From Azolla caroliniana (Eukaryota > Plantae > Polypodiophyta), in assembly GCA_043228905.1 (NCBI GenBank), contig JBHGNT010000001.1, positions 28,892,001 through 28,956,000 on the forward strand: a stretch of 64,000 nt of DNA. Reading direction: 5' to 3'. Each line of letters opens with the position of its first letter. Position 1 is the stretch's first letter. The translations under genes were made by a program, and so were the position numbers. Shown here in pieces: positions 5,471 through 64,000 of this stretch. Below the pieces are notes generated by a model that did no database searches, was not told where the DNA came from, and saw nothing but the letters and a program-made list of their open reading frames with translations.

Positions 5471-5656
5471 AGCCGGACACAGAGCAGGATGGTTCCCGAC
5501 AACCGACATCAGTTCCTTAATGATCGGCTTCAACTATTCCGACCCGACCAGTTCGGTCTTCTGCCTTCGGACCCTGCCGACTCGAACAAAGCTGATATGT
5601 CCGAGAACCTAAGTCTATACCTGTAATCTTAGATAACCCATGTATACGCCCATTAC

Positions 5657-5663
5657 GGGGGAG
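5657..5663 (+). promoter_or_regulatory. Polypurine tract of copia element 1
   Basis: GGGGGAG directly before the 3' LTR TG. Confidence 0.9.
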
Positions 5664-14920: not shown

Positions 14921-15185
14921 CACCGTAGATTTTTTAGATTGTATTGCCCTAGAGAAAAAGAATAACCAGCTGCTGTTTTGTATTTTTTAAGCTGAAAGAA
15001 ATCAAAGTTTTTTTTTCTCGTTGTGGTAGAGAAGCAAATACTTGTGTTCGTTATATATTTTACGTATAAATTTTACCTTTGATGTATTTTGTTGTCAAAA
15101 ATTGACAAGACCAGGATTGGCCACAACTATGAATGTAAGTACATCTTTATCAAGCAAGAAGGCAGGAAATTTAGTACTTTAATTT

Positions 15186-15570
15186 ATTTTATGCATGGTA
15201 GCTTGGGACGGGTTAGGGTTTAAGGTTATGTACATTGGAGCAAACATAATGCTAGGCCATCTTTTTGTATTATATATGTTCAGATATTGGTGTTTCTGAT
15301 TGATTGCATACATTATATAGAAAAACTATTTTTATGCATGGTAGCCTAGGAGGGGTTAGGGTTTAAGGTTATGTGCAACATAATGCTAGGCCATCTTTTT
15401 GTATTATATATATGTTCCATTGATATTGGTGCTTCCAATTAATTGCTTACATTATATAGATAAACTATAATTTTTATGCATGGTAGCTTGGGAGGGGTTT
15501 AGAGTTTGTATTATATACGTTCCATTGATATTGGTGTTTCCCATTAATTGCAAACATTATATAGAAAAAC
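15186..15570. repeat. Degenerate ~142-bp tandem repeat, 3 copies
   Basis: TTTTTATGCATGGTAGC(T/C)T(G/A)GG...CATTATATAGA recurs at ~15186, 15329 and 15471. Confidence 0.8.
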
Positions 15571-20200: not shown

Positions 20201-23200
20201 ATCATTCAAAAGACACTAAATTATTCATATGATTAAGTGGATGTCCTGAACCCAAATACCACACAATATGAAAGAAACTGTTAAAAGGACGAGGATAATA
20301 TACCTTAAAGTCAATACGATGCCGCAGCTCCCTACCAGGATATTTGCAAAGGCCATAGTATGTATCGACACCTGAATCAGTACCCTGTTATATTGCAAAC
20401 AGTATGTAATGTTATCATTAAGCACATGATGTTGATATCATGTAGTTTGTTTTTCTCCACTGCATGTAGTTCTAGCTCTTTTAAGAGAAAACAGGTCAAG
20501 ACATTATTTAATCCTCGCTAAGAAAGTAGTAAACAATATCCACATGAATACATTTAACATCTGCAAGCTGTTGTCATAAACTAATCATCATCAAGAAAAT
20601 CAATCGCATCTGCTACAAAAGCAGCAGTAATACCTCTAGCAATGGTAGGCACCATGATCACCAGCACAAAGTTGCATTTATCTAGGAAAAGAAATAACAA
20701 TACTGAAGAACAGTTCTCATGAAGGCCCGAATTAGCCGGCTACAAATGCTGAAAAGAGAACTGAAGCTGGTAGCCAATCAATTTCAGCATGGATCACAAG
20801 TCTTCATTGGTCTGACTTGTCAGATTAGTGTTTGAATAAAGTTTTTAGCAATTCAAAACAGCAGTAATTACCGAGAACATAGTTTTCAATGAGTACAGCC
20901 AAGATCATATATAGTTTTCCAAGATGAAGATAATGTTCACAAGTTGCTTGATATTGTTTACATAACCATATTAAAATGGCAAACAAGTTGATAGCATGTC
21001 AGAGTAGCATATACACTCATTGTTAATACATAACATTGGAATATTAAAGTTAGGCCCTGTTCTAGATAAATATATGATATTCATGAAGGTAAAAATGCAC
21101 ACGATTATATATGTATACCTCTATGCTATTGGTAGCAGAAACCAGTAAGTCTTCAGTCAAAAAGTCTATTTTTTTCAATGCTACTATTAGTTTCACCAAG
21201 AATCCACTGTGACTGCAAAACACAACAAAAATTCATAAGCAGTGCTCCAGTAGGAAACACATCTTTAATTTTATCAATATTTGGGCTAAGTATTTATGGA
21301 GGTTCTACGAGAGGCAGCCAACAAAACAGAGGTGCAGACTATAGTTCAGAGGCTATTCAACACTTCCAAGCCAGCCTGGGTAGCTTAGGAAAGAGCAGGC
21401 ATGAGCTTAACACAGAATTAGTTGAATAATTATATTAAACATATATAACAATATACAACAAAAAAAGAATAATTAAATCTACACAACAGAACTAGTTGAA
21501 CAGTTAAATCTACTACAATATACAATAAATAAATAAATTAAGGTGTTACGGAAGTATGAATATTAGACCAGCATTTCCGAAACATTGGAGTTTCATAAAA
21601 CGTATGTTACAATTTTGAGGATGCTTATTTTCTTACCATGCTCGAAAATCATCAGTGTCATTGCAGATAACGAAAATCCAGACACATTTTATGGGTTAGA
21701 GCATCTTTTTCAAGAAATTTGATAAATACCATGAGCCCCAGCAAGTTTGGGGTCAATACATAACATATTCTTAGGATAAGAATAAAAGCATTGTTGTTGA
21801 ATAACTTTATTTCCTTTCTCAATATTGGGTTTCCACCAGTACTTATCCAAATGTCAAATTATTTCCACTGGACATGTATGTTCGAGACTAGTGTATAAAT
21901 AAGTAAGCATGTATAAATAAATACATGATCACTAGTTGCATTACTCAATTAAGCTAAGGTTAAATCAAGCGCACTTCTTCTCATGCATGAACAGAACAAA
22001 AAATGGAGACCATTCTATAATGTTTTTAACTTGAAGTGTTTAACTTAATAGTATGCATCTTGGGAACATAAATTTCGACTGCTAATGGGCAAACTCCATA
22101 CCATGTGCACTTTTTAAGAGATTTCAATTGGACATCCAAACAACTTGCAGTATGTTGTGATTAAGACCTTACAATACTATAACTACAAAGAAAGAAATAA
22201 AAAGCACTTCATAACCGGACCGTAGAAGGATCCATCACCTCGATCCATCAAGATGCGTGATTATAAAATCCATGTCACTGCAAAGTAATTTTCCCCGCCT
22301 ATAAGAACCTCCGCAAAGCACAAGCATCTTCCAATCCAAGAAAAAGTAAAATGAGATAATGAAGTAGATTGAAGGGAACAAATCACTAAGTAAATTTCCT
22401 CCACACCTTATCATTGTTTTCCACAACAATGCTCCAAAAATGACAACATTTTTCTTATACCTTAGCATTTTTTTATAAGACTTACAGATGGTTTGATCTC
22501 CTCAGCAACTCTTTTCACAAGTGTCTCCATCTCCTTGACCTTGAAAATAATACATAAAATGGTTAGAACTTATCCCTATCACCAGAACAATTTTTAACAG
22601 AACCACACAGCAGATGTCACCTCGTGACGAGGAATTTTTACATTCAAGTCATCATAAAATTGCAACCCTACTCTCTGAGATGCAGTGAGTAAACATTCAT
22701 CCTTAAGATCATTTAAGTTTCTATGACCCTTTTCATAGAATCGTTGTGCTGTGGCAGGACCAACACCCCAAATAGATGAGAAAAGGATCAACGTCCGAAT
22801 CTGCATATACAGTATTGTTTTTACATAAGTATCTAAGGAGAACAAATGCCTTGAGGTAAATAAGTAAAGAAATAACCAGATAATTTATAAGCTAAAGATG
22901 TGTTGAACATTAATAACCTTCTCATCATTTTTGAAGCTCTCCAACTTTGATAATTTCCCCGTAATCAATATTTCCTCAATCTGCAGACAGAGACAAAGAC
23001 TATGTATAACGTGTCTGAATACACGTTTTATTACCTTAACCATTGTAACCTACGAACATTGGCAATAACAGAGGTAACATAATTGTTTATCATTTTTAAT
23101 AGAACATTGAGGTTATTTTAAAGAGGGAAATGTTCACAGAAGTATCTATTCTTATAGCCCTAAATGTATATAGTCTTTTAACATGCAAAATTGGACTTCT

Positions 23201-27079: not shown

Positions 27080-27580
27080 ATGCCGCCGAAGCTAGATCCG
27101 TCGCAGGTGGTGGAGGTGTACGTGCGCGTGACAGGCGGAGAGGTGGGCGCGGCGTCTTCATTGGCGCCGAAGATCGGGCCGCTGGGCCTCTCCCCGAAGA
27201 AGATCGGGGAGGACATCGCGAAGGAGACGGCGAGGGACTGGAAGGGCCTCCGCGTGACGGTGAAGCTGACGGTGCAGAACAGGCAGGCCAAGGTGGCCGT
27301 CGTCCCCAGTGCCGCCGCCCTCGTCATCAAGGCCCTCAAAGAACCCGAGCGAGACAGGAAGAAGACCAAGAATATAAAGCACAATGGCAACATCTCCATC
27401 GACGACGTCGTCGAGATCGCTCGCGTCATGAGGCCCCGCTCCATGGCCAAACAACTCTCCGGCACCGTCAAGGAGATCCTCGGCACCTGCGTCTCCGTTG
27501 GCTGTACCGTCGATGGTAAAGACCCCAAAGATTTGCAGTGTGAGATTGACGACGGAGACGTAGACATCCCTGAAAACTGA
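27080..27580 (+). CDS. RPL12: 60S ribosomal protein L12 (uL11), intronless CDS
   Basis: 166 aa [41 protein letters not shown]...[16 protein letters not shown]. Confidence 0.98.
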
Positions 27581-32300: not shown

Positions 32301-32521
32301 AAGAAGAAAGACGAAGAAATAATGAAAAAACTGAATCCTTTAGTGAAGAAGAAGAAGCCTTTTTCTGCTTCTTCTTCTTCTTCTTCTGCAGCATCTCCAA
32401 GCTTCCATCGGAGCATGCGACCTTTGCTAGGAATTCTGAAGAAATCCAACGTATAGCGTGTGTATGTGCATTTATATACTAAAGCAGGTTGTTTTTGAAG
32501 CCTACTGTGCAGTAAAGATCG

Positions 32522-35500
32522 ATGGGAAAGAGAAAACTCGCGCAACTTCTGGACTCGGAGGATGAGAATGACGAAGGACCCGTGTTATCTAAAGAGGACC
32601 AAGTTGGAGCGGAGGAAGAAGTGGGAGAAGAAGAAAAAGATGCAAAAGAAGGAGAAGAAGCCATGGTAGCTGTCAATGTTGCTGTTGGATCAGCAGGTGT
32701 TAATGAAGGAGAAAAGGAAAAAGAAAAAGAAGAAGTAGAAAAGGAAGAAGGTAATGTTGGTGATGGTGAAGAAGAAGAAGAAGAAGATGAAGAAGAAGAA
32801 CCTGCGGGTGAACCCAAGCCTTTAGGTGATGTTATCAAACGCAGCGGAAGAGGGAAACTGGAGAAACTATACTATCAAGCGTTTGAACTGGATGGAAATC
32901 GCTATGAACTTGTGAGACATTTTATCGCCTATATTGTCATGCTCTTTGGAACAAATTTCTTTCAAGTAAATTGTGGTATGGTCTGGTTTTCAAGTCCTTC
33001 CCTAACGTTTAACCTTCAGTTATTATTTCCATGAAATTCTTGTTAATACATAAAGATGATTTGTTTTTCACACTCTTCAACAATACACTAACTGTGGTTA
33101 AGACCATTCAGATTAACTGTTTTTTTTTAACTCTTCAACTAAACATTGTTTGGTTTGGTTTTTTATGTCTCTTAAAGTTGAAATATCCTTTATTTCCTAT
33201 TTCTAATGCTGTTATATGTTCACACAATAAAAATCAGTCAAAGATTAACCTTTTATACAGTTTTTAGGTGAATTGTGAATAAAACTCAAGCATTCATGCT
33301 TGACTTTTCAATGGCTACTAAATGAAATTCCGGTTAAAGCTAAAGTTTTAATGCTTCAAATTTGCAACAAATTACTGTCTTTTTCTCCATTCAAGCCTGC
33401 TTAACCTCTGTCTCTATTCTAGATTACCCTGTCTTTATGCAGGATGAAAGATTTGTAGCATGTTTATTGTGTTTTTCTGTGAAGTTTTATTTAAATCGTA
33501 ATTTTTCATGCTCTTGAGCAATGTTTTTTCAAGTAAATGTTGTAATCTGGTTTTTGAGGCTCACAAAACTTGCTTAGTGCTCATTCAAGTTTATTTCACC
33601 TTCATTTCTATTCGTATATTTCTGGCCTTCTGCTGCTTGAAAGTTCATGAGATGCAAAACGGCCAGTTTCTAATCTGACTTTTCCACCTTAATAATTTAA
33701 AGCTTCACGCGATTTGAGCAGTATCCTTTCAAGTAAATCTAGTCTGGTCTGGATTTAAGCCTTCAAAGTTGCTTCCTTTTTTTAAATTACAGTATTTATT
33801 TTGCATTCAAGTGTCTTAATATCTATTCCTACTCCAGATTACCTCATATTTATGCTTCTTCAAAGCTATGAATATGCAATTTATTACGAAAAGCCAGTCT
33901 GTAAAGTAGTTCTACTGCTACTTGTTGAACTTTTAAGTAAATCTTAACTTTTCTTGCTCTTGAACTATGTCTTCTTCAAGGAAAGGCTTTCTATGCTAGT
34001 CTAAAGCTCGAACTTGTTACAGTTTTTGAATAAAAAGTCTTCGTTTTGATTTGTACAGTTATTCCATGAATTTTTAGCTGAAACTTTAATCGGTCATGCA
34101 ATTGAATACTGTTATTTCAAGTAACTGTTGTCCAGTCTGGTTTTTAAATCTTCAAAGCTGGCCATCACTATTCCAGATTATCTTTTCTTGATTTGTTCTC
34201 TGCTCAAAACCTCCTGAGATTATAAGCCAGTATCTACCATGATTCCACAGTTCTTCAATTAACTTTTATAAAATGTCTTGGGCTTGAAGAATTATAAGCC
34301 AATCTGGTCTCGCCAACTATAAGGCTTCAAACTTGCCAGAGTTATTGCCACACACACACACACAGTCTCTCTCTCTCTCTCTGTCCGTTTCAAGTTCATT
34401 TATCTTCTATATTACTCCATATTACTTTGCCTGTATGCTTCTTGGAAGGTCTATAGAGTGGGGGTTGTTTATTACTCAAATTTCATATGCCTATGGATGT
34501 TCAAGGTCTTGATTTAGGTCATTTTCTTCTGTCCATAGTTTATTTATTAAAGTAAATCATACTTCCAAAATCTTAGTGTTTACCTAAAATCGTCACAGAG
34601 CTGAATTCTATTTTAGAGTTTGATATCTCTAGATTACTTGCTATCTGTATAACATAGTGGCTGTATAAAAATATGGATATTCATGTTTTTGATAAACAGA
34701 ATCCTCATTGGAAAATGTTGTTACATTGAGAAACAGTTGTACATGGGATAGAATACATCCTTTCTTATTGTTTTAGATGGTTATTGCCTCATCTTAACCG
34801 TAAATTTGTCAGTGTTTGGAGTTCCAACTAAAGTGAAGAATATAAAATGAACTGACCTTATATTAGGAGTCCATCTTCGAGTTATCAAATGTACTCCATT
34901 GCTCTTTCCATGATAAATGTAACAAATCAATATGTTACCCTATATGACCCGCTTCACCGGAAGAACGTGCAGTAGCCACACGATTTATCCAACATTAAAA
35001 TGAGAGTGTTTGAAATGATAGTTGTCAAATGAGTTTACAATCTACCTCTTGATGAAGACATTTATCTGAGACAAAAATTTAAGTGAGACATATGTCAATT
35101 CTCACTCCAGAATGTGCTCAACCAAGTCTAGCCAGCTTATGGATAATGATCATAGGGAGGGATGCGTATGTATGAACTTGAAACTTGTGTTTGCCGAAAG
35201 GATATTAAAAATGCCAGCATGTTTGCATTTAATCGGTAATTTATACTTTGTTAATTTCAATATCTTTCCATATCATGGGTTTAGTGTTGTCTTTATTGTC
35301 GTTGGTGTAAAGTTTCCATTTATAAATTAAACATTTTGCATAAAGTAATGGTGTATAACGTTATTGATGAATTCGTTTTATACTTTGATTTAACCAATGG
35401 TTTCATTATTTCTAGGAAGATTCTGTGCTTATCACTCCTGAAGAGAAAAATCAAAAGCCTTATGTTGCAATCATAAAGGTATGAGTTGTGCAAAGAATTA

Positions 35501-38500
35501 ATTTCTTTACTTAGAACTCCTTCGTCACTTTTGTGTTTGGGGTTCTTCCCTCTGCTGTAGCTCTATGCAATCTTTATTTAAAAGTTTTCTAATGGATAAT
35601 GTTAGCTGGGATGTATGCGTGATTTTGTGTTTAACCTACTTTAAGGTTAACCTGTTCTGACATTCTTTTCTTGACACTGAGAATTATTTAATATACTCAT
35701 TATTTTCTATTCTCTAAAAAATATAATCTAAGTCATATAAGATGAAATATCAGTATCTACCGATTGCACCTTTTGTAAATTATTTTTAAGAAGCTGTTTT
35801 CTGCAAAATAAATTATCGATTAGGCTCTTTGCTTATGGAAGGGTTAATTTCAAAATGGTGGGCTGGAAGCTAAACTGCTAACGTTCAAACTAATTGTTGG
35901 GCATTCAAACTTATTATATTTGGCATGTGGATTAGATTTATTCTGGAACATGATTGCATGGGTTTCTTGGGTATACTTAGTTGAAAAGTTCGTTTAGTGT
36001 CTTTAGTACTAGGCTTTTGTAGTGCCATTTATCTGATAGAAACAAATATAACATGATGTTTGTCTGTCATTAACTTATGTGTAATCACAATTATCAAGAT
36101 TGTATCGCTATTGGGATGCACTTCATATCAAATCTATATATGCATTGTCCTTATTTATTTCCTAATTATTATTTTCATTACCTTTTAGAAGTTTTGACTT
36201 TGGTTTAGACAGATCATTCTTTCTTGCATAATGCATTTTTGCTGTCCGAATTTCATGATGAAACCTGATATGCTGAATATTTATTGAGGATATTATTTGA
36301 TTTGTAGCTTGATACAAGCTGAATATTTATTGAATACATTATATTTATAGATCTCTTTTGATTTGCATATTGGGTATCAATGTGATAATACTGGGTTGTG
36401 ATCCTTTAACATTCCAGGGTGAAAAGCTGCAAACACCTTGTGGATCATGATCCCTCCTGTATTTATGAAGTTTTTTCTTTGTTGCATTCATAAATACTTC
36501 ACATCTACTGAAATGCAGATGTAACATTGCTCATTTAACATAAAATTGACATGGATGTTGAAAACATGCATCATGAATTATATATTTACATTCAAAATGC
36601 CGGTTTATCATTAATTCCTATTTTTATATTCTGCGATGGAAAACTAATAATGGGAGCAATAAAGCTATATATGGTTATTTATCATTTGGTGTTATTTTTA
36701 TTTTTATCATTTCGCGTTTCAGGAAATTAAACAATCAAAAGACGGGAGTATTGCAATCACAGGACAATGGTTTTACCGTCCAGAGGAGGCATTTAAAAAG
36801 GGTGGAGGTAGTTGGTGTTCTTCTGATTCACGTGAGTTGTTTTACAGCTTTCACCAAGATGAGGTAGCTGCTGAAACTGTAATGCACAAATGTGTGGTGC
36901 ACTTCATACCCCCTCACAAACAGACTCCGGTTCGGTCAAAGCATCCTGGGTTTATTGTGCGGAAAGTTTATGACACCGTTGACAAAAAGCTTTGGAAACT
37001 AACAGACAAGGATTATAAAGATAGTAAACAATTAGAGCTTGACATGCTTGTACAGAAGACTAGAGATGCCCTTGGTGAGCTTCCTGATATTGATCCTGAA
37101 GAAGTTGTAGTTGACCAAGAAGAAACTGATAAGAGCAGAAGTCAGATTCGTAGAAGAACTATACTTCCTATTAACATCAACAAGGACGAAAATTCACCTG
37201 GGGATTTATCTGTAAAAGAATTCCCTGGAAGACCAGATACACCTGGCAGTTGTTTGGCACAATCAGAGGAGTACAAAACTCTAGTTAACTTCAACGTTCT
37301 CACTGGTAATAAGGCACGGGATAGATGGATGGAAAAGATTTTCACAGGTGTGAAATATGTTTGCAAAGTGAACTCAGAGAATGCTGAGAAGAATGTTGTA
37401 AAAGAGGAGACACTTTCTGCAGATACATTGCACACTGTCACAGAAGAGTCCGTTGGAACTCTAACCAATCATGGTAGCAACAATATGCCCAAGGCCTCAG
37501 AGGTGAAATTATTTATCATAACGATGTATTTGCTAGGTGATGGCATGGATTTGATCGTTATGTTTATAATACCTGTGCACAGGCTCAGTTTCATCTTAGT
37601 GGATAACACCATTTAAGATAACTAGGATAACTGTTCTGGTATAGTAGAATGGAGATATGTTAAAGCGAAGTGTTTGCTTCTGCAGATTAATGCTGATCTC
37701 GTTTGGCCTGACGATGCAGTTGCTGCAGTTACAGGGCTTGAGAAAGTAGCTTTTGATACATTAGGCTCTGATATGCACAAATATAACTTGAAGATGCGTC
37801 AGCTTGAATTCAATTTGAAGGTAGTCAATGATCTTCAAGAGTACACAAATTTGGATATTGTAAATCTTATATGTTGTATGATGTGCTCTTCTGGTGTTAC
37901 AGAACAGTACAGTTCTTGCACAACGTCTTCTCAAGAAGGAATTGGATGCATCCAAAGTTCTGAATATGTCTCCAGCAGAGTTAAAGGTGTTATTATTTAT
38001 TGCCCGAAGTTTAATATTCAAATACTATGGTATCTTTCTTGTTAGTTTTTGACCATAACCATGAATTTGTTAATAACAGGATGGCCTGACAGCTGAAGAG
38101 AAGAGTGCCCAGGAGCCAGAAGAGATAGAGACTATGCAGGTGGGTTGTGACTTGCAACCCGATTATAGGATTCGTTAGCTGCTTCATATATGAGATGTTG
38201 GTATAAGGTTGCTATCTTTGTAACAGATGGCAGATGTTCGATGTGCAATATGTGGCGAAAAGAAAGTTGGAGTAACGGACATTATACATGTGGGACATGG
38301 GGATAGATATCAGGTAAAGATGTTAGGACAAGAAGCTAAGATGAGAGCATACTGTTAGGAAACTGGAATGTATTATACTATATATTTGCTATGTATCTGA
38401 CAATGACGTTCTGTCTTGTATCTTCTCAGTTGGAATGCTTGAAATGTGGAAATACATGGTATTCGTCAAGGGATTCTATATCCTCGTTGACAATTCAGAC

Positions 38501-40549: not shown

Positions 40550-40990
40550 GAGCTCAGTTGGTAAGGTTGCCCAATGGAGACCAGGAGGTTATGGGTTCAA
40601 CCTCTACATTCCACCGTGGCATATAGTAAATTAAGAGATATATGTGGAGTAATAGAGAGGTGAGAGATTGGGTTTCGAACCCAAGATGGTTATGGGTTCA
40701 ACCTCTACATTCCACCGTGGCATATAGTAAATTAAGAGATATATGTGGAGTAATAGAGAGGTGAGAGATTGGGTTTCGAACCCAAGATGGTTATTGGTTC
40801 AACCTCTACATTCCACCGTGGCATATAGTAAATTAAGAGATATATGTGGAGTAATAGAGAGGTGAGAGATTGGGTTTCGAACCCAAGATGGTTATTGGTT
40901 CAACCTCTACATTCCACCGTGGCATATAGTAAATTAAGAGATATATGTGGAGTAATAGAGAGGTGAGAGATTGGGTTTCGAACCCAAGAT
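40550..40990 (+). repeat. tRNA-like SINE head followed by 4 x 101-bp tandem array
   Basis: A-box-like GAGCTCAGTTGGTAAG and B-box-like GGGTTCAACC; units start at 40587, 40688, 40789 and 40890 and differ at about one position. Confidence 0.85.
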
Positions 40991-41363
40991 GTAGTGCTTG
41001 TATTGTAACAAATTCCAATACATAAAAAAGAGAGAGGGAGAAGTACTAATGACAATGTTGTCACATTGTGCTTGGTATTAGGTAACAGAAGTGGTGATGA
41101 ATGTCATGTATTTCACACATACATACGTATACATAAATTATAACACACACACACACGTACGTTTTCACACACACACACACACACACATAGGAGAGAGAGA
41201 ATCTACCCGATTTGTGTGTGTATGTGTGAGCCTAACTAACAAACTTTGTTGGTGTGTGCCAAGTGAAAGAAAGTCTCCAGTATGAAGCAAGTGAAAGCTA
41301 AACTTAAAAGCCATGGCTCTCGTGAGTCGTGACAGTCCGCCCTTCTTCTATATAAAAAACATT

Positions 41364-41550: not shown

Positions 41551-41587
<37 letters not shown>

Positions 41588-41608
41588 CAGAGAGGAAGAA
41601 GGAAGAGC

Positions 41609-42823
41609 ATGGCCATGGCAACTCACTCCATTGTGCCCACCATTGTATCGGTCTTGCTAATAAGCTTCTTATATTTAACGTGGCCTCCCTTTCAGCATTC
41701 GCATCTCCATGAAGCCATGGCAGAATCCTCATTGATTGGTAAGAGGAAGGCGGTCCTTCATGATGATCAGGCCTCCTCCTCCTCCTCTTCTTCCATGCCT
41801 AACGCTTATGATGTTCACACAGTCGTCTCTCCCAGAAACCCTAAGACAGGCTCCACCTCCACATCCCAGTTTGCTGTCTGTAAATTAGACCGCGCCCATG
41901 GTGGCGGGGACTGCTTTGGTAGGGTTCTGTATTGCCCATCTTCTTGCTTCTCCATCGCCACACATCATGACACTGACGATGAAGCGGCTACGTCCTATCG
42001 CAGCGCTAGCGTGGAGAGCCGGAAGACAGACGGAAGGGGTAAGAATATTGGCAAAGAGGATTACGACTATTACTACGATGACTATGACTACGGCACTCCC
42101 GGAGGAAATGGTGGGAGTGGTGGTCAGAATGGGGCTCCGGGGGCCCCTGGCAGTGGAGGAGGTGGTACTGGTGGTGGTGGTGGCCTCGGAGGAGCTGGAG
42201 GGGCTGCTTCACCTCCTGCTCAATCAACAATGCCAGGAAGACTGCCTACTCCGCCACGCCCACCACCAGGAGGAGGAGGAGGAGGTAGAAGAGGAGGCGG
42301 CGGAGGTTATGGTGGCCGTAGAAATGGCACCACCAGAGCAGCAGCAGCAGCAGCACCTCCTCCTCCTCCGCCAAGTGCGCCTAGAGACGGAGCTCCCGGT
42401 GCTCCAGGAGGAGGAGGAGGAGGAGCCGGTGGCCGTGGTGGTAATGGCGGCGACCGAAATGGAAATGGAGGAGGTGGTGGTGGTCAAGGTGGAAACGGTG
42501 GCGGTCAAGGTCAAGGCGGCCGGAATGGTAGTCCTGGGCGGGTTGGGAGCGGCGGTCAAGACGGCCAAAGTGGTAGTCCTGGGACGGTGGGGAGCGGCGG
42601 TCAAGGCGGTAATGGGGGTCAAGGAGGTGGTCAAGGCGGCGGGGGGAGGGGGGGTCGTGGAGGAGGTGGAGAAGGTCGGGGTGGGGTTAGAGAAGGAAGT
42701 TTGGAGGGAGAGACTTACAGTGGTGGTGGCCCAATGGCAGGGCAAGTACTAGGTAATGCTAATGGTCATGGTAATGGTGGTTGCATGTATGATTGTGTTA
42801 CCGAGTGCCGCGCATTCTGTTAA
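41609..42823 (+). CDS. Secreted/cell-wall glycine-rich protein with split Cys-rich domain (AT4G21620-like family)
   Basis: Single 404-aa ORF; hydrophobic N-terminus; VC...GDCFGRVLYCPSSCF and terminal GGCMYDCVTECRAFC bracket a ~280-aa Gly/Pro-rich insert. Confidence 0.8.
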   Translation: MAMATHSIVPTIVSVLLISFLYLTWPPFQHSHLHEAMAESSLIGKRKAVLHDDQASSSSSSSMPNAYDVHTVVSPRNPKTGSTSTSQFAVCKLDRAHGGGDCFGRVLYCPSSCFSIATHHDTDDEAATSYRSASVESRKTDGRGKNIGKEDYDYYYDDYDYGTPGGNGGSGGQNGAPGAPGSGGGGTGGGGGLGGAGGAASPPAQSTMPGRLPTPPRPPPGGGGGGRRGGGGGYGGRRNGTTRAAAAAAPPPPPPSAPRDGAPGAPGGGGGGAGGRGGNGGDRNGNGGGGGGQGGNGGGQGQGGRNGSPGRVGSGGQDGQSGSPGTVGSGGQGGNGGQGGGQGGGGRGGRGGGGEGRGGVREGSLEGETYSGGGPMAGQVLGNANGHGNGGCMYDCVTECRAFC

Positions 42824-51400: not shown

Positions 51401-54400
51401 AAATTCATGCAAATGCAGTTTCCATACATACGCATGTTACATTGAAGTTAAACCTGTTCTTTTTCAAATGTAATTTGTTGTGCTTCTTTATGTTCTCTCT
51501 CTTTCGTCTCCAAATTGCGTTCAAGGTCCTCAATAAACTCCTTTTGTCTGACATTTCAGACACAAACCAAAAAAAAGGATTAGATTCATACCTGGATGCT
51601 TGTAAAAGAAATCCTAAGATGTGTACATGGTATATTTAATCATTATCCTATGCATACTTCATACTAGTGCCTAATGAATGGAGATCTATCTCTATCTTGC
51701 CTACTATATCCAAAGGTTCAATTAAATGTACACTTATTTTCTGAAAAGAAAAATCTGTGTTGTAGAATATACATAGAACCTATGTGTCACATACAGAAAA
51801 TGCATAGATTTATCAACATGTACAAAACAGAAAATGCATAGATTTATCAACAAGGTTTAAATAGCTTATAATTTCGACACAAAACAGAAAATGCATAGAT
51901 TTATCAACAAGATTTAAATAGCTTATAATTTTAACAAAGTGCTCTAAGGAAGATTAACAAATGAAACAAACAAAACAGAAAATGCAATGAAAACAAACAA
52001 AATAGAAAATGCATAGATTTATCAACAAGATTTAAATAGCTTATAATTTTGACATAGTGCTCTAAGGAAGATTAAAAAATGAAACAAAGTGAACCAACTA
52101 TCTACAGCTTTAGGCTACGTGAATGATCATCTCACTTGTTATTAGCAATCCGGAGCTGTTGCCTTTCAGCATCTAATGTACGAAGAGCTTCACCAGCTTG
52201 TGCCCGTACTCGCTCTAAATCATGTTGCAGTGAGGTACACTGTGATAATGCCTGAGATGCTTTCTCTGAAGCAGCAGCCAGCTGAGATTCAACGTCTTCT
52301 TTCTCCTGAAATGTAATAATATTCTTTCTCATACTTAATTTAGGTCCCTTAAATGAAAACTAATTGCTCTTCATGGCTGCAAGCATTCAGATGAACATTA
52401 GGAAATATATAAACTAAAATAGCACATTGGAAGCCTCAAATTGAAATATATGTTTTCGATAAACATGTTCTTACCTTCTGCATCTCCTGAATTCGTTGTT
52501 TTGCACGTTTCTGCAGTTTTCCAAACTTAGCATCAAGTTCTGTATACTTCTTATCCCGTGCTGTAATTTCGTTTTCCATCTTTTTTTGGGCTGAAATAAC
52601 AAAAAGCACAACATAATCTTCACATAACCTCCTAGAATATGGATTTCCATTAAACATAGTGAAATTCCTCAAAGAAACAAACCTTCTGCAAGTTCCAATG
52701 CTAATGTCTCTGCTCTTTGTTCAGCACCTGAGAGGGACTCACGAAGCTCTGCAACTAGTTTCCCTGATTCTGAAAGTGCAAGATGGTTCTGCTGCAATTG
52801 CTGCCTTAACTTTGTTACCTCTTCATACGAATTACCATTACATTCTGCCACTTGCTCTTGAAAATCTTCCATTTTCCTTGGTTGTTTATTCTCCTCCAGC
52901 TCAACTAAATCTGCTTCTGTGTCAGCTAAAGGAGTCTCTCCTTTTCCCATCTCAAAGCCATTTGAATGATTTGGACTCAGATCCTCGCCAGTATCGTGGT
53001 AATCTGGAGGCACTGTCATCGGGGAAGAAATTTCTATATCATTATTCGGACCATTAGGATCTGATACTGCAACATTGTCCTTTAATTCTGACAGGGGTAT
53101 TGTCTGTTCCTCTGACTGTTCAAGCTTCTCAACCAGGAGCAAAACCAGATACCATTTAAATTCATTAGCTACAAAAAATGAATACTTTTATCTACAGAAA
53201 GAGGTTTCTACGCTTTTTATTTTTTATACAGAGAAACTTAAAGTAAAACGTCTAAAACAAACTCACAGGCTCTTGCCTTGTCAAACCTTACGGTTATTAA
53301 ATCTCATTTTGGCCTCTTAATAGACATTAATATAACTTTCTTTGTTTCTTTCATCGGGCAATGGCAATTTGCCGTGCACATAGGCCCCGGCCCCATGGAC
53401 CACGACCTCGACACCCTTGTCATCGACAGATAAAAGCCATTATCTCCTGCCATCGTAGGTGCTTCCCTCGCTTTGGAGACATTTCCATTTTGGATCGACC
53501 TAGGATAGAGATCTTTCGAAGACAAAAGCTACAATATACCTAACTTGAGAATCTCACATGTGCCAAAACCAGATTCCCTCGTCTCTTTTCTTTTCATCTT
53601 ATTTACTTTTATATTTACTGTGTAATATTTACTTTATTTTGATTTGTTCTCAAAGACGAGAAAACACTTAAGATGTAATCTCTTATTTGGTCTTATAGGC
53701 CATTTTGGCCTCTTAAAAGACGTTAATATATCTTTCTTTCTTTCTTTCTTTCTTTCAGAGCCCAGTCAATTCTTAATCCTGCATAAGTCACATTCCTCCA
53801 GAGATGAAGGTGAAAAATTGCCTCACTGTCCTCTTCAGAGAATCACTCATTGACTCTTCTTTCTCCGCATGAGGGAGAGACAAAATTCACATATCATTGA
53901 CCTCTGCCAGCAGTCCAGCCCACTACACATCGTAACTGGTGCAAGCATAGGCAACAAAATGCATATTTAAAGCTACATATACCCACCCTGTTGTCCAGAG
54001 GACAGAAATGTAAAATTAGGAAATTAGCAAACGCCGAGTCCGAGTATCACGGGCCACCGACGGCTCGGCGGTGTATTAGGGGAAAGGTTATTTAAACGAG
54101 GAGCAGTACCTCAGAGAAGGGGGAGAAGAAAACTATTGGCGGAAGCACTAGCTTAGTCATTCGCAATTAGATAAACTCATAAGGTCACCGGCCATAGGCC
54201 GTGTTCTGTAATCTTTTCTGTCATAGTAATATCTGATTTGTGCCTATTTTTGCTGCATGAGTCTGTGCTTTGATCCATACCTATGAGTTTTACGCTGCCA
54301 CGTCTATCAAGACCTCGCTAGTGTTTTCTCTCTGAGCCCTGTATCTCTCTCGACGCCTCTGTTACGAGCCTTCACGTACCACGCCCTTGAAGACCGATAG

Positions 54401-57400
54401 ACGTAGATCTATCGAAGGTGTTCACCCAAAGGAACAGGTAACACAATTTGGCACGCCCGGTTACAGCTGTGAGTGCACAGCGAACTTCGTTGAAGGTAAC
54501 CACCAGCCGCCGTTACGGCGTCCTCTTGCACCATGAGGTCTCGGCCACCCACCCGACGCCCTGAGCCAGTCGAAGGAACTTCTGACTCGGCGGTCACTGA
54601 CCAATCCTTTACCGATCAATCGGGGGCGTGTCCAGTGCAATCCTCGCCACCGGACACTCGATCGCGAGTTGATTCACCACCAAAACCCCCGTCCAGCCCT
54701 CCGGAGGTCAATCAACCGGAACTAAACCCTTTTCCGGTGCTACCAGAAGACCCACAGTACGACATCATGCCGTACCCATACCCACGATATACCGACGGAC
54801 CAGACGCGGAGTCACACGTCCGTGCCTTCTTATCCACGTGGCAGGCTAACCACTCCACGCACCGCCTCATGCCGGCCGAAATCGATGCCTCGAAGATTGC
54901 CGAGTTCACACTCTCCCTCGATGGACCGGCCGCACGATGGTACTCTCGGCTCGAAATAGGAGAGGCCACCACTTTCCAAATCGTGCGCACAAAGTTCCTT
55001 GAACTTTTTCATCGCGAGGTGCCTAAACGGGAACTGCTCCGGCAATTCTTCTCTATATGCCAGGAACCGCACGAAACGGTCGCGCAGTTCACGATCCGGT
55101 TCCAGGATCTCTACAGACAAGTGGCCGATGATGTCTCGGCACAACATATACCGGACACTTTCCTATCCAGTTTACGAGAACCTCTACGAACGACTCTCGC
55201 ACTTACAAATTTCGCCAACCATACTATCGAACAAGTCATAACGCTCGAGCAGTGCGAATATAATATGTTGAACCAAACAACGGCGGCACCGGTCTGCCAG
55301 ATCGAGCCATGAAATACATACTCTCGACCAACTGCGATCAACCGGATCGATGGCGCCGAGACGACGACTACCAACGTGATAACCGCCGTGATTATTATCG
55401 CAATGACCGGCACGACAATTATGCTCGATACGATGACAATCGCGATGATCGGTATGACCGAAGGAACTCACGCATTGATCGGCGAAACGGCAACCCCAAC
55501 ACACAGCAGGCTGCACCACCACGACCCCGGAAAAGGAAGCAGGCGGAGGAAACGACACTACCGGCCCCGGAACCCCAAACCCAGCCAAGCAAGAGAAGAC
55601 GACTCAACCGCGAGTCCTCGGAAGAACAGAGAGAGCCACAACAAGAGCAAGCCTTAGTGGTCAGACAGAGCAACCTGGCCATCACCCCTGAGGAGGCATC
55701 GCTGAACCAGGGAACGATCGAGCATGGGCAGACAACGCAGATCTCGGAGGATGAAGTCCTCGGGTATAAGGACCTCCCCGCGGAGGCTTACGAATTTAGT
55801 GCGCTCCTACGCCTTGGTAGGTCATTCGAGCTGGTCGACTTCCTCGCCAGAGCCCAAGTCGCGGCAGCCGCTCGAATGACGGAGGAGCACGCCGAAAAAA
55901 AAATGATTCAACGCGCGCTAATAGGTGAAATTGAGCCTCAGGAGGACAGGGCTTTACAAAAAATCGGGAGGAAGAAGCAGGCAAAACAGGCCGCTCTCCT
56001 CATGGAGGTACCCGAGTTGAACACAGCCCTTATCGAGGCATATTGGGACCTGGATCGCACTACGCGGGCAGCCAAAGACATGGCCCGAAAGATAAAAATA
56101 GCCCAAAAACAGGCTAAGATGGCCACAAAACTATGGCACACTGCGAACTAGAAGCTGGCAGCCTGGGAGCAAAACCAGCCGGAACAACAACTCTTGAGTC
56201 TTTTGGTAACGACCACCGAGGCCCTCCCAGCGCCTCCACGCATAACAATGATGGATGCAAGCACCATCACCGACTCAATCCTGAAGGTGCAGGCCAGTAC
56301 ACAAACGGACTCGTTACAAATGGTCGTTGCCTGCACAACAACCGAGGCGCCCACGCCCATGGAGAAGACCGAGATACCACCACCTCGTGCACCCAAGGAG
56401 GTGGCAACCCAGACAGAACCCCCGCTCCAGGATTACCGTGCGGAGCTTAAAGAAGAACAACGGCGAACCGAGAGACACGAACAACGGCATCAAGAGGCGA
56501 TGGCTCGCCTAAAAGAAGAAGCTTCCAAGCAGATGGCCGAAATAAGAGCCCAGGCCGACCAAAGGATACATGAGCAGAACGAAGCACTGGGCCGGGTACA
56601 AGCGCAAGCCGCGGGCAAGGAATCCGAACTCAAAAGCAAGCTGGAGGAATACGCAGCCACAGTGGTGAAGAAAGAGGAGGTTCTAGACCTACAGGCCGCG
56701 CTCGACAATGCAAAAGACTGGAACCAGCGGCAAAAGGAAAGAAATCGCCAACGGGAGGAGAGGATGAATGCGGAGAATGCCGAGCTGCAGAGTTAGCGTA
56801 CGACCCTTAAAGAGATGGCTGACGAGTTTTTCATCAAATGCAAGCTACTTTTGGAGCAAAAAGACGCATTATCGGATTCCTACTTCGCCCTACAAGAAGA
56901 GCAAATCGTCGAACGGGAACAAATCCGGGCCACGTGTCAGAAAGAACGGGAGCAGGCCACCGAAGAACTCACCAAGCGCTACGAGCAGGCTCTCCAACTC
57001 GTAACCGCGGATGCAAAGAACACTCAGGCCATCTATGAGCTAAGAACACAGAAGATTCAGGCCGAGGTCGACGGCTTAAAACAGGAATTAGCAGCCATCC
57101 GAGCACAGCCCGGCATGGATGAGACACGCATCCGAATACTGATCGAGAAACAGCGCCAGCACCTTACCAAAAAGGTCGAGGAAACATTAAGTCGCGCAGG
57201 AGACGAATGGGCAGCCCAAGCTGCCGAATTGCATATTTTACGCGCCGACACCGAGAACCGACGGAAGGAGGGCCGCGGCTTCTACAAAATGGACGAAGCC
57301 AGCATACAAAACCTGCGTGCAGATTTAACTGAGGATTACCAGTCCTTGGCAAAATCTCACACTGCGGCAATCGAGCAAATAATGGAGGACTTCAATGACG

Positions 57401-59100
57401 GTCAGATGCTGTTTCGCCTGGAAGCAGAAGCCTTCGAACGAGAACGACTCGCAGCCATCCCCACCAGCCCTCCAACGGCCACAGAGCAGAAAGAAAAACC
57501 TCCCAGCAAGGAGATCACGGACACGGCACAGGAGGAACTTGCCCCGGCCAACAAACATCCCATGGACGCCCACACGGTACCAGAGCCTGTCGAAGGAGAG
57601 GTCAGCGCCCACGAACCCACACCCCCACCAGAAGAATCGGCCGCACCCGAGGCGGACGCCCGAGAAGATATGCCACCCCTGGACCAAACTCAACCCCCCA
57701 CACCGACAGTCCAACCAGACCACCCTGCCACCACCCCGGACCCCGAAAGCATCCTCGACATCTTAAAGGAGGAATGAAACGAGGATCACGCCTAAAAGGC
57801 AATTTTTGTAATATTGTTAGTATTTTGTAAGTCATGGGTCCGACGGACAAGGTCCTGTCCCACGGGCGTGCCAGGTGTTGTCCAGAGGACAGAAATGTAA
57901 AATTAGGAAATTAGCAAACGCCGAGTCCGAGTATCACGGGCCACCGACGGCTAGGCGGTGTATTAGGGGAAAGGTTATTTAAACGAGGAGCAGTACCTCA
58001 GAGACGGGGGAGAAGAAAACTATAGGCGGAAGCACTAGCTTAGTCATTCGTAATTAGATAAACTCGTAAGGTCACCGGCCATAGGCCGTGTTCTGTAATC
58101 TTTTCTGTCATAGTAATATATCTTATTTGTGCCTATTTTTGCTGCATGAGTCTGTGCTTTGATCCATACCTATGAGTTTTACGCCACCACGTCTATCAAG
58201 ACCTCGCTAGTGTTTTCTCTCTAAGCCCTGTATCTCTCTCGACGCCTCTGTTACGAGCCTTCACGTACCACGCCCTTGAAGACCGATAGACGCAGATCTA
58301 TCGAAGGTGTTCACCCACCACTACACATCGTAACTGGTGCAAGCATAGGCAACAAAATGCATATTTAAAGCTACATATACCCACCCCTTCAATTAAAAAA
58401 AAGTTATTTGTAGCATTTACTTCACATTAGTAAAAATAGGGATCGAGACTCATGAACAATTCATCAAGGAAAAAACCACTTGAATATGCTTAGACCAGAC
58501 TCATATCACAATTGTGCACTCATCTTATATAGCATCACAGCTATTCCCTCCTTCATAGAACCTATATCCTACAGCAATGGTTTATTTGGTGATCTTGTTT
58601 GAGTGAGCTTCTGCCTTTCTTACTTAAATGGTGAATGTAAACTTTTTTCCTGTAATTTACATTTTTGTCTTTGTGTTACCTTTTTTTGAGTCTACAACAA
58701 TGGAGATCCTAGAAAAGACCTATCTATTTTCTCCTTTGTTTTTCCCTTTCTGGGGGGAAAGCTGACCAAAACTTTTCCCTTGACCAGCACCACATTCCAC
58801 TTACTTTTCTTCCACCTACAGATTAGTTAACCTTGTTCCTTTTCGTATATCATTTTGTCCTAAGTTAGATACTAATAGAACTCTTTAACACTTGTGTGGA
58901 AATGTTTCCTGCCCCACAAATTTTCCTTATGAAATGCAATATAACTATGTCTAAATACATTCACTGCATACTACTTTGACTGTGAAACCTGAACACTAAA
59001 CTATCCAGTTGGTATTTTGAAACAAAAAGAACAGATTTTTTACGGATACCTCTTGATCATTGTCCATATGCTTGGATAATGCCACACCTTCGTTCTCCAT
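45406..59100 (-). CDS. GRIP: GRIP-domain trans-Golgi golgin (AtGRIP-like), multi-exon
   Basis: First coding exon 59050-59100 (in-frame stops upstream); RDKKYTELDAKFGKLQKRAKQRIQEMQKEKED; ILARQQAQREEEL; GRIP domain REGVDMTYLKNVIMKLLETGEVEALLPVIAMLLQFSPEE; stop 45406-45408. Acceptor of the ~52684-53120 exon not resolved. Confidence 0.9.
51791..52090. repeat. Intronic AT-rich minisatellite-like repeat
   Basis: A(C/T)AGAAAATGCATAGATTTATCAACA recurs about 4 times with variable spacing, plus a partial copy. Confidence 0.75.
53302..53757 (+). mobile_element. 5'-truncated RTE-like LINE 3' end with (TCTT)n tail
   Basis: 53400-53520 matches the reverse complement of ~8900-9040 (GGTGCTTCCCTC core); ends AGACGTTAATATATCTTTCTTTCTTTC. 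Confidence 0.7.
53989..54445 (+). repeat. 5' LTR of gypsy-type element
   Basis: Starts TGTTGTCC; ends GGTAACA(CA) at 54443 or 54445, 3-5 nt before the PBS. Confidence 0.85.
54449..54461 (+). promoter_or_regulatory. Primer-binding site, probably tRNA-Arg(UCU)
   Basis: TGGCACGCCCGGT is complementary to the plant tRNA-Arg 3' end ...CCCAC(C/T)GGGCGTGCCA (tRNA sequence recalled, not searched). Confidence 0.8.
54533..55312 (+). CDS. Ty3/gypsy retrotransposon Gag (capsid; zinc knuckle apparently deleted)
   Basis: YPYPRYTDGPDAESHVRAF...FTLSLDGPAARWY...KFLELF...ICQEPHETVAQFTIRF matches the Retrotrans_gag pattern. Confidence 0.85.
   Translation: MRSRPPTRRPEPVEGTSDSAVTDQSFTDQSGACPVQSSPPDTRSRVDSPPKPPSSPPEVNQPELNPFPVLPEDPQYDIMPYPYPRYTDGPDAESHVRAFLSTWQANHSTHRLMPAEIDASKIAEFTLSLDGPAARWYSRLEIGEATTFQIVRTKFLELFHREVPKRELLRQFFSICQEPHETVAQFTIRFQDLYRQVADDVSAQHIPDTFLSSLREPLRTTLALTNFANHTIEQVITLEQCEYNMLNQTTAAPVCQIEP
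55309..57777 (+). pseudogene. Long single-frame coiled-coil ORF of the LTR element, interrupted by two TAG codons
   Basis: ORFs 55309-56151, 56194-56796 and 56815-57777 share one frame, separated only by TAG at 56149 and 56794; RD-rich start, basic NLS-like motifs, E/Q/K/A-rich helices, Pro/Glu tail; no PR/RT/RH/INT motifs. Confidence 0.7.
57876..58317 (+). repeat. 3' LTR of gypsy-type element (lacks last ~15-17 nt)
   Basis: TGTTGTCCAGAGG...GGTGTTCACCCA then duplicated host sequence. Confidence 0.9.
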
Positions 59101-61395: not shown

Positions 61396-64000
61396 TGTTG
61401 GAAGCGAGGTCGTCTGTGCGGAAGATCGAGAAGCATTCAGTTCTGTTCTGAATACCTGCGTATGAGAGATTGTAGGTCGTTGCACACAGAGAGAGAGAGA
61501 GAGAGACACAAAAGACTCTTTATTTCATAAACAAAGAATACAACAACCAACCTTACAAAGAGGTTACAAGGTCACTATATATAGTGACCAACTTAGGGCA
61601 ACTACCCTTTATGATAATTACATAAATGGCCAAAACGGGATCGTGTGAATACGTCCATTATACACATGTATTCGACACTCCCCCGTAATGGGCGTATACA
61701 TGGGTTATCTAAGATTACAGGTATGGACTTAGGTTCTCGGACATATCAGCTTTGTTCGAGTCGGCAGGGTCCGAAGGCAGAAGACCGAACTGGTCGGGTC
61801 GGACGTGTTGAAGCCGATCATTAAGGAACTGATGTCGGTTGTCGGGAACCATCCTGCTCTGTGTCCGGCTCTAACCGGACTGGTTTGTCGTTACGCCCAT
61901 CTGATGCCGAAGAGACCGAAAACGGTCTGCCGAAAGACATTTGGTCATTCCATCTGCGACATTGTCGGTTGTGGATATTTTCTCTAGACCGATTTTCCCT
62001 GAAATGACGCAGTCCCGAACGAAGTGATATCGAACGTCGATATGTTTGGAGGCGTTGTGGTGAACCGGATTTTTCGACAAGGCAACAGCACCTTGACTGT
62101 CGCTGTAGACAACTGGAGCCGAGTCATGGTCGACTTGTCGAAACGTGTGCGCCAGCCGACCGAGCCATAAAGCTTCTTTTGCTGCGTCGGACGCAGCTAC
62201 ATATTCTGCTTCAGTCGTTGAGGTCGCTGTGCACTCCTGAAGTTTCGACTTCCACGAGATTGCTCCATTGCCGAATTTGAAGCAGTATCCGGTTGTAGAT
62301 TTCCGACTGTCTATACAGCCGGCGAAGTCCGAGTCGGTGTAACCGACTACGCCTGAGGTTCGGTTCGGACCGAAAAGAATGCCATGGTCTTTTGTGCCAG
62401 TCAGATATCTGAACACATGCTTGACTGCGTTCCAATGCGATCGGCCAGGGTTATGCATAAATCTGCTAACGACTCCTACGGCGTGAGAAATATCAGGCCG
62501 TGTCGCGACCATCAGGTACATAAGAGAGCCGACTGCCGGTGCATACGGTACCGACTTCATATCTTCCCCCTCCGGACCGGATGTCGGGCAGTCTCGCTGA
62601 GAGAGCCGAAGATTCATAGGGAGCGGGGTTGAAGCAGATTTGGCTGATTGCATGTTGAAGCGTTCTAAGACACGTCGGATATAGTCGGTCTGAGACAGAA
62701 AAAGATGTCGTTTATCGCGATGCCGACTAATCTTCATGCCAAGGATGTGTCGTGCCGGACCGAGGTCCTTCATGGCAAACTTCAACCGCAGTTGCCGAAT
62801 GAGATCGGCAAGTTCGCCCGCGTGGCGTCCAGAAATTAGCATGTCGTCCACGTAAATGATGAGGAAGATGGGTGATCCATCTTGAGCTGTGTTGGTGAAG
62901 AGACAATGGTCCTCATCGCTTTTGGAGAAGCCGATCGATTGGATGAAGTCGTCGAACTTCTTGTACCATTGTCGCGGTGCCTGTTTGAGGCCGTATAGAC
63001 TCTTCCTGAGTCGGCAGACTAGATGTTCTTGGCCGGTTGCCACGAAGCCTTTTGGCTGCTCCATATAAATTTCCTCCTCGAGATCACCATGGAGGAAGGC
63101 TGTTTTGACATCTAGCTGAATCAGCTCCAAGTTGTCGGCTGCCACTACGCCGAGTAGGAAACGAAGGGTTGTCATTTTCACCACTGGTGAAAAAATCTCG
63201 TCGAAGTCGACGCCATATTCTTGTCGGAAGCCCTTCGCAACTAATCTGGCCTTGTACTTTGGGGTGGTCGAATCAGACGTCTCTTTTAGTCGATAAACCC
63301 ACTTGCAAGGAAGAGCACGTCGGTTCCTAGGTAATTCGACCAGATCCCAAGTCTTGTTTGCCCGAATGGAGTGCATTTCCGACTCCATCGCCAGATGCCA
63401 GGTGGCGGAATCGACAGATGTCGATGCTTCTTCGTAAGACGTCGGTTCGCCGGCGTCGGTGAAGAAGATTCCAGGAGAATACCTCTCCGGAGGTTGCGAC
63501 AGTCTCTCGGATCGTCGAGGTATGATTGGACTGGTCGCATCGGGTATCGGGGTCGGATGGTCCGAAAGCGGATTGTTCTGCTGTGCCGAGTCGGGGTTGT
63601 CCGAGTCGGTAGTGTAAGGTTCAGCTACCCGTGAAGCTGACCGTGTGTTAAGAGCGGGGCCTTCTTGAAGGGTCGGCACATCGGAAAATGTTACCCTTCG
63701 GACTTCGATCTGTTTTTCGACTGATGGATGCATAGCCGACTCGTTGAACACAACGTCCGAACTTCGAACGATTTGTCTGCGTTCGGGGTCCCAGAGTCGG
63801 TATCCCATTTCGCCGTCGGATCCATATCCAAGGAAAATGCATTTCCTGGACCGAGGTGCAAGTTTTCGGCGATCATCTTTCGGAATAAGGGCGTACGCCT
63901 CGCATCCGAAGATCCTCAGCTTGTCGTAATTCGGCTTACTGCCGATCCATAGTTCCTGAGGAATTTGAAGTCCTAGAGGTCTACTTGGCGACATATTGAT
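61396..64000 (-). mobile_element. Second copy of the copia family (3' part; continues beyond window)
   Basis: 3' LTR 61396-61677, PPT 61678-61684, pol nearly identical to element 1. Confidence 0.96.
61871..64000 (-). CDS. Copia Pol (integrase C-terminus, RT, RNase H), 5'-incomplete in window
   Basis: 707 aa, about 8 amino-acid differences from the matching part of ORF 1457-5470. Confidence 0.95.
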   Translation of the reverse strand: MNMSPSRPLGLQIPQELWIGSKPNYDKLRIFGCEAYALIPKDDRRKLAPRSRKCIFLGYGSDGEMGYRLWDPERRQIVRSSDVVFNESAMHPSVEKQIEVRRVTFSDVPTLQEGPALNTRSASRVAEPYTTDSDNPDSAQQNNPLSDHPTPIPDATSPIIPRRSERLSQPPERYSPGIFFTDAGEPTSYEEASTSVDSATWHLAMESEMHSIRANKTWDLVELPRNRRALPCKWVYRLKETSDSTTPKYKARLVAKGFRQEYGVDFDEIFSPVVKMTTLRFLLGVVAADNLELIQLDVKTAFLHGDLEEEIYMEQPKGFVATGQEHLVCRLRKSLYGLKQAPRQWYKKFDDFIQSIGFSKSDEDHCLFTNTAQDGSPIFLIIYVDDMLISGRHAGELADLIRQLRLKFAMKDLGPARHILGMKISRHRDKRHLFLSQTDYIRRVLERFNMQSAKSASTPLPMNLRLSQRDCPTSGPEGEDMKSVPYAPAVGSLMYLMVATRPDISHAVGVVSRFMHNPGRSHWNAVKHVFRYLTGTKDHGILFGPNRTSGVVGYTDSDFAGCIDSRKSTTGYCFKFGNGAISWKSKLQECTATSTTEAEYVAASDAAKEALWLGRLAHTFRQVDHDSAPVVYSDSQGAVALSKNPVHHNASKHIDVRYHFVRDCVISGKIGLEKISTTDNVADGMTKCLSADRFRSLRHQMGVTTNQSG

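Follow-up and report, generated by a model that had tools for sequence, protein, structure and literature searches.

Near the right end of a 64-kb stretch of the Azolla caroliniana genome (64,000 nucleotides, the whole of which is here called the window) we have found a long terminal repeat (LTR) retrotransposon at positions 53989-58317 that, judged by its sequence, is an internally deleted derivative of a gag-pol Ty3/gypsy element like the one at locus L043. The subject of this analysis is the region just before its 3' LTR, in which a copy of the 3' part of an arginine tRNA stands in the place of the polypurine tract (PPT). The comparison of copies described below indicates that a structured tRNA-Arg site takes the place of the PPT, and that this is real, conserved and lineage-wide. 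The parts of the element are as follows, with PBS for primer binding site, ORF for open reading frame and tRNA positions in what we take to be the standard numbering.

53920..53988, no strand: left copy of a 69-bp host duplication, identical to 58318-58386
53989..54443, forward: 5' LTR, 455 bp, TG...CA, 97% identical to the 3' LTR
54444..54448, forward: 5-nt spacer between LTR and PBS, identical in all 9 same-family PBS contexts of the loci and the window
54449..54461, forward: minus-strand PBS TGGCACGCCCGGT, 13 nt complementary to tRNA-Arg(UCU) 64-76, forming a duplex with the bacterial stand-in tRNA of L048
54500..55312, forward: 5' part of the gag frame, Retrotrans_gag at aa 136-226 (Pfam E 2.3e-10)
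55585..57786, forward: 3' part of an extra forward ORF, broken by two in-frame stops
57803..57830, forward: T-rich tract abutting the tRNA-like module upstream, in a U-box-like position
57834..57843, forward: copy of tRNA 49-58 (5' strand of the T-stem plus T-loop); read on the minus strand, it is the outer half of a second tRNA site
57844..57856, forward: insert of 13 nt, holding a hairpin of 4 bp (57845-48 with 57852-55) whose 3-nt loop varies
57857..57873, forward: copy of tRNA 59-76 minus one C (65/66), GTCCCACGGGCGTGCCA, with a CCA end; the minus strand reads as a PBS
57874..57875, forward: GG spacer, 2 nt, fitting integrase trimming of the U3 end; the TG of the LTR is at 57876
57876..58317, forward: 3' LTR without its last 15 bp
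58318..58386, no strand: right copy of the host duplication, identical to 53920-53988

The tRNA-like module before the 3' LTR

The original prediction had placed a PBS behind the 5' LTR and a 17-nt site, followed by GG and the TG of the LTR, at the other end. A direct check of the sequence gave the same coordinates for all of these, and the site indeed ends in 11 nt that are reverse-complementary to the 11 nt with which the PBS begins. The 10-mer shared in this way by site and PBS occurs at only two places in the window, both strands counted. The tRNA-Arg(UCU) 3' end that had been put forward in support of a tRNA origin agrees with a real gene, but one that may differ from that of the host: our comparison tRNA is the bacterial tRNA-Arg(TCT) of L048, retrieved by a gapped motif search whose matches were real tRNA-Arg(TCT) genes only, one of a phage (L046) and one bacterial (L048). 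Thus the 17-mer has its counterpart in a real tRNA-Arg(UCU), although in a non-host one. The phage gene (L046 5998-6091, 94 nt) carries extra bases between the anticodon and the T arm, and its 3' end is that of the stand-in except at position 66.

The last 13 nt of the L048 tRNA pair with the PBS. As had been claimed, the tRNA likeness of the 3' site outreaches this pairing, with 16 further nt that match the tRNA and not the PBS, and it is longer than first noted, given that the whole module (57834-57873, 40 nt) aligns with the last 28 nt of the tRNA, interrupted by a 13-nt insert at the 58/59 boundary and lacking one C at 65/66. The point of insertion is presumably the usual 18-nt limit of a PBS. 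The outer block (57834-57843) matches tRNA 49-58 at 8 of 10 positions in the window copy, at 9 in most copies and at all 10 in a second family (L029). With uniform bases, the chance of such a 10-nt block within a spacer of 0-30 nt is 0.013, 9e-4 and 3e-5, respectively, and shuffling gave 0.015 for the window copy. Among 44 copies T54 was found in 44, A58 in 43 and G57 in 41, while position 55 was C in 36 and T in 8; this is also the main variable tRNA-matching site in the aligned contigs, and both T and C are compatible with pairing to the tRNA U on the minus strand. At least 25 of the 28 bases of the stand-in tRNA are paired in all 44 copies.

The original prediction had also stated that no purine run precedes the 3' LTR, and only AGG abuts it. 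In the 60 nt upstream of the LTR, purine runs do not exceed 3-4 in 39 of 44 copies, and in the remaining five the longest has 5-8; by contrast, the copia element of the window has seven purines before its LTR. An ordinary PPT in other copies would have spoken for a local accident; none was seen in these motif-selected copies, and an alignment of unselected contigs agrees.

The single aberrant event that had been feared at the outset can be set aside, because the module recurs in 45 metagenome loci and in the depth peaks of four runs. The exact 24-mer made of the site, the GG and the start of the LTR gave 46 matches in the 45 loci (picked by this motif, and belonging to one series of assemblies and not to independent studies), intact gag-pol elements among them. 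In all 46 the 17-mer 57857-57873 is exact and the LTR starts 2 nt after the CCA. Contigs aligned to the window at 80% likeness are free of this selection. Across four runs, which belong to four studies and have three organism labels, their summed depth (which is not copy number) peaked over 57854-57871, in run X1 at about 290,000 versus 8,000-21,000 at 57800-57829, and loose ends of contigs from many different upstream sequences converged at 57835. The shape of the peak shows that diverged subfamilies have the stretch 57854-57871 in common. Variants of at least 2% within 57834-57875 were found at only five positions, 57834, 57840, 57850-51 (loop bases, with a variant reaching about 90% in run X13) and 57868 (a CpG base); none was listed at that level for the GG spacer (57874-57875) in the four runs. 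Upstream, T occupies 57823-57826 in 74-94% of 34 distinct aligned rows. The median pairwise identity among 32 copies was 0.87 for the 23 nt of the module outside the search pattern, 0.62 for U3 (300 nt) and 0.59 for the 37 nt upstream, and the 23-nt part was still 0.78 identical when only the pairs whose LTRs are less than 65% identical were counted (299 of 496). Some copies are rearranged: module and partial LTR are present twice, 721 bp apart, in L024 (1218-1962), L014 contains another module copy, which is decayed and has TG in place of the GG spacer, and in L013 and L045 a reversed sequence like the LTR of the window copia element starts five bases into the family LTR, indicating a nested insertion.

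The second family, L029, has an LTR and internal DNA that match no other locus. Its module nevertheless has the same 17-mer, the GG, the complete T-arm block and an insert of the same length, whose hairpin is a differently compensated version. The PBS of L029 has only 10 nt in common with the site: it diverges at base 11 and the site does not follow. The family is seen at L029 2604-2990, on the strand with the 24-mer; its LTR is about 330 bp long, there is no coding match nearby, and the PBS has only a 10-nt match to the stand-in tRNA.

The insert hairpin covaries, with 93.6% of 140 cells paired and six changed on both sides; none of 500 shuffles reached as high and all slid controls were lower, although the relatedness of the copies inflates these counts. 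A count of T-stem pairs proved uninformative, its 3' strand being fixed by the search pattern, and the idea, suggested by the alignment, that the hairpin pairs over a distance with the start of the LTR was dropped because it fails in several subfamilies.

Priming of the second strand

According to the literature (represented here, for every paper cited, by excerpts), the left edge of the LTR is fixed by the start of plus-strand synthesis, and a purine tract resistant to RNase H is regarded as what primes the plus strand in LTR retrotransposons and retroviruses in general (PMC5371799). Since the left edge of the LTR lies 2 nt after the CCA, the plus-strand primer very likely ends in or next to the tRNA-like tail. 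The common partner of module and PBS would be the tRNA, and not the PBS itself, because the 16 extra nt match the tRNA and the PBS of L029 shares 10 nt only. We consider it probable that the plus strand is primed by a second host tRNA bound to the minus-strand DNA. Of the two mechanisms that had been put forward, this one fits better than pairing of the site with the element's own PBS, the mechanism itself being something that we infer.

In this scheme a tRNA-Arg at the 5' PBS would prime the minus strand as usual. After strand transfer, reverse transcriptase (RT) would copy U3 and the module and RNase H would clear the RNA. A second tRNA-Arg could then anneal to the freed DNA, with 11 bp formed by the tRNA 3' end, then a bulge of one base and 6 bp more, and a further 10 bp of the T arm would pair beyond the DNA hairpin, which would produce a three-way junction. 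RT would elongate the CCA into GG-U3-R-U5, RNase H would remove the tRNA as an ordinary RNA:DNA hybrid and integrase would trim the two extra bases. More speculatively, the bulge at 11 bp and the junction at 17 bp from the primer end might shield the primer from RNase H before extension. The lineage would in that case probably be a land-plant Ty3/gypsy group without PPT in which both strands are primed by host tRNA-Arg, the second via a three-way junction, a new mode for LTR elements and retroviruses.

Predicted pairing speaks for the tRNA. The last 28 nt of the stand-in tRNA bind the minus-strand site with -29.2 kcal/mol and the PBS with -21.3 kcal/mol, while the pairing of site and PBS gives -15.8 kcal/mol. 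With RNA parameters, the hairpin had a probability above 0.5 in 33 of 37 distinct copies when the tRNA was on the minus strand, against 4 for the plus RNA alone, 5 for the minus strand alone and 18 for the plus RNA with the PBS.

Several points weigh against host-tRNA priming. The folding used RNA or DNA parameters and not RNA:DNA hybrid energies, and DNA parameters shrink the hairpin contrast to 32 versus 19, 7 and 20 of the 37 copies (same order of states). In 23 of 37 copies, the plus RNA is predicted to fold into the T-stem once the PBS is bound, making a mimic in cis feasible. The tally of wobble polarity is weak: 48 changes are wobble-compatible and 21 mismatching, but a single inherited state at position 55 accounts for 36 of the 48, leaving 12 versus 21. 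The tRNA match rests on a bacterial gene and not on the host tRNA-Arg(UCU). ARAGORN detected one tRNA over the 45 loci, a tRNA-Arg(ACG) near a 3' LTR of the window-element family (L041 131-203); this only tRNA-Arg found in a plant contig fits neither the PBS nor the 3' site. The missing C and the insert have only the speculative explanation given above, and no family turned up in which both ends have a different tRNA. Finally, the case for the host tRNA is built on sequence and folding.

The RNA of the element could itself provide the primer if a tRNA-like piece of 17-40 nt survived RNase H and were cut after the CCA in the manner of a PPT, the tRNA likeness then suiting an RT that recognises tRNA-type primers or being a relic of its origin. 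We regard this as the main rival, possible but rather improbable. It has the same logic of position, 2 nt before the LTR, and needs no second tRNA. The T-rich tract just upstream is placed like the U-box that adjoins PPTs (PMC10085805), a resemblance that would fit a host-tRNA and an own-RNA primer alike. However, neither hairpin nor T-stem can form in an RNA:DNA hybrid, and yet the hairpin covaries; the T-stem exceeds a probability of 0.5 on the free plus RNA in just 7 of 37 copies, and the base-by-base conservation of the T-loop on both sides of the 13-nt insert is left unexplained. Even in this case, a primer made of a GC-rich tRNA-tail copy would be of a new type.

The module might instead pair with the PBS of its own RNA, serving in 5'-3' circularisation, dimer linkage or as a tRNA mimic in cis that, once cleaved, would prime the minus strand, with the plus strand started from some other RNA remnant. 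Bridging of 5' and 3' ends is known in Ty3 and Drosophila gypsy (PMC5371799, PMC1635307), the complementarity extends over 11 bp, and the PBS-bound state supports the T-stem (23/37) and, in fewer copies, the hairpin (18/37). We find this unlikely: it has the weakest predicted binding (-15.8 versus -21.3 kcal/mol for the tRNA at the PBS), the missing C cuts the duplex of site and PBS from 13 to 11, the PBS of L029 differs at base 11 with the site unchanged, and the precise edge of the LTR is left without a primer. A fold-back, in which the 3' end of the minus-strand DNA (a copy of the tRNA tail with its CCA) would snap onto the second site and prime the plus strand, is allowed by the sequence over 11 bp and seems very improbable, as hairpin products would need a nick, the conserved positions 49-65 would go unused and finished elements have ordinary direct LTRs. 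Least credible is a neutral relic of a tRNA piece or inverted PBS caught once and without present role; template switching onto a tRNA is a plausible origin, but the identity of the module compared with U3 and the upstream sequence, the compensatory changes in the hairpin and the presence of the module in a family with unrelated LTRs largely refute it.

Intact relatives and known systems

Three loci (L025, L043 and L018) have an unbroken gag-pol frame and an extra forward ORF before the tRNA-like site. The gag-pol frame has 1797 aa in L025 and L043 and is cut by the contig start in L018. That of L043 contains gag, a zinc knuckle, RT (951-1110), RNase H (1172-1301) and integrase (1410-1580), and for the protease a DGG motif without a Pfam hit. 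The original prediction had pointed to the RT and RNase H of autonomous partners, and their catalytic residues are intact; the closest solved structure for RT-RNase H is that of Ty3 RT (4OL8, E 1e-72), whose two active sites are described as lying about 13 bp apart (PMC5371799), the spacing on which the speculation about a shielded primer draws. The gag frame of the window copy is 84% identical to aa 1-247 of the L043 gag-pol, and its pol is deleted. The extra ORF lies between pol and the module (L043 5645-9130), has about 1160-1190 aa in intact elements, is kept open in several subfamilies and has a charged, helical-looking rear half; neither a Pfam hit nor a transmembrane-like stretch was found in it. 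The remnant in the window is 56% identical to its aa 442-1162.

The order gag-PR-RT-RH-IN in L043, the direct TG...CA LTRs and the tRNA PBS place the element in Ty3/gypsy. No chromodomain matched at E 0.01 in L043 or P0003, as in non-chromoviruses. Like Athila, Tat, Phygy and Selgy, the lineage thus lacks a chromodomain, measures about 10 kb and has a single gag-pol frame, and, as in some OTA elements, there is an extra 3' ORF (PMC6317226). Tat elements (TatI-III, Ogre, Retand) have an additional aRH domain (PMC6317226); here only RT-type RNase H families match, so that Tat does not fit. Phygy prefers NCGN targets, has a tRNA-Trp PBS and has no extra ORF (PMC6317226), whereas we found NCGN in none of 18 flanks, an Arg PBS and an extra ORF, so that Phygy does not fit either. 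Athila, with a PBS mostly for tRNA-Asp, Asn or Ala, no aRH and ORF-1 in some members (PMC6317226), agrees in the lack of aRH and differs in the Arg PBS and the lack of a PF03078 match, traits that in Athila are tendencies. A tRNA-Arg PBS without aRH matches none of the plant Ty3/gypsy clades listed in the excerpts of that review, and no PPT-less clade is among those described there (PMC6317226). The nearest named relatives in RT-RH are from Riccia (50-55%), Marchantia (50%) and Adiantum (47-49%). A quick RT-RH tree of 94 rows, made without REXdb reference sequences and leaving out unnamed rows below 44.5% identity beyond the first six, groups the lineage with liverwort and fern elements, sister to the seed-plant rows. 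Among viral contigs, 33 pattern matches yielded no confirmed distant relative with DNA context, and L047, the sole match of a looser motif, is unrelated.

Yeast Ty3 resembles the lineage in using a tRNA at the PBS for the minus strand and a plus-strand primer that ends just before U3, but this primer is an element-encoded 12-nt purine tract, where the window lineage has the copy of a tRNA tail (PMC5371799). Ty3 and Drosophila gypsy, with their bipartite or double PBS, also have a second tRNA-related site close to the 3' end of the genome; on the RNA strand those sites are the complement of the tRNA, and they bind the T or anticodon arms and coexist with a PPT (PMC5371799, PMC1635307), unlike the present one, which is tRNA-sense on the RNA, includes the CCA and replaces the PPT. 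In the self-priming Tf1, Tcn1 and TAR a sequence encoded by the element is the complement of some 11 nt of the PBS, but it lies at the RNA's 5' end inside the LTR and the PPT is kept (PMC6317226, PMC10085805); in the window, the PBS 10-mer has its sole complement at 57864-57873, which is not within an LTR, and the tRNA match extends far beyond the PBS. Helenus TRIMs (terminal-repeat retrotransposons in miniature) are likewise LTR elements with tRNA-derived sequence, in their case a tRNA-like promoter in the LTR that is not complementary to their own PBS, with the PPT kept (PMC10886601). A match in a mulberry paper (PMC5381547) was, to judge from the extract, due to chance. No description of a PPT-less, tRNA-tailed element was among the literature matches listed, which covered few subscription-journal papers. 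The element is therefore of a known kind, Ty3/gypsy, with a likely route of second-strand priming that we did not find described.

A successful high-copy lineage without PPT indicates that the general PPT rule can be broken, and gives a natural system in which to test what decides whether an RNA:DNA hybrid becomes a primer or a substrate of RNase H. Element finders that require a PPT would be predicted to under-call the lineage, and its antisense strand may be a second target of tRNA-Arg 3' fragments.

Insertion of the element and other features of the window

The end of the 5' LTR was placed by 18 distinct flanks behind one common LTR end in other copies. Between the two LTRs of the window copy there are 10 substitutions and one 2-bp indel. 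Directly behind the PBS (54462-54490) there is a 6-bp hairpin, also present in same-family PBS contexts. An Rfam scan over the element gave nothing meaningful, and ARAGORN detected no tRNA in the window. An extra tRNA base (C) before an LTR was found in none of the 45 loci and the window, a sample too small to count.

The window copy, the one copy of which both flanks were seen, is flanked by a duplication of 69 bp, where a Ty3/gypsy target-site duplication would have 4-6 bp. A contig of organism C, a relative, runs from 53988 straight to sequence like that from 58387 on, i.e., an empty site with one 69-bp copy. A joint of 53919 to 58318 in runs X1 and X2 was rejected as an empty site, being one base beyond the repeat. 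The 69-bp duplication and the clipped 3' LTR suggest an insertion with one faulty end and have no bearing on the module.

Elsewhere in the window, an intact-looking Ty1/copia element (566-5953) has a frame of 1361 aa (1385-5470), 290-bp LTRs that are 99.7% alike, a Met-type PBS and the seven-purine tract mentioned above. A second, inverted copia copy, 98% identical, occupies 61396-64000 and is cut by the window end. There are also an intronless RPL12 gene (27080-27580), which puts the host among land plants and no finer, exons resembling what we take to be a BAH-domain gene (32516-37616), a 101-bp unit with four repeats at 99% identity (40587-40991) and a glycine-rich open frame (41570-42823).

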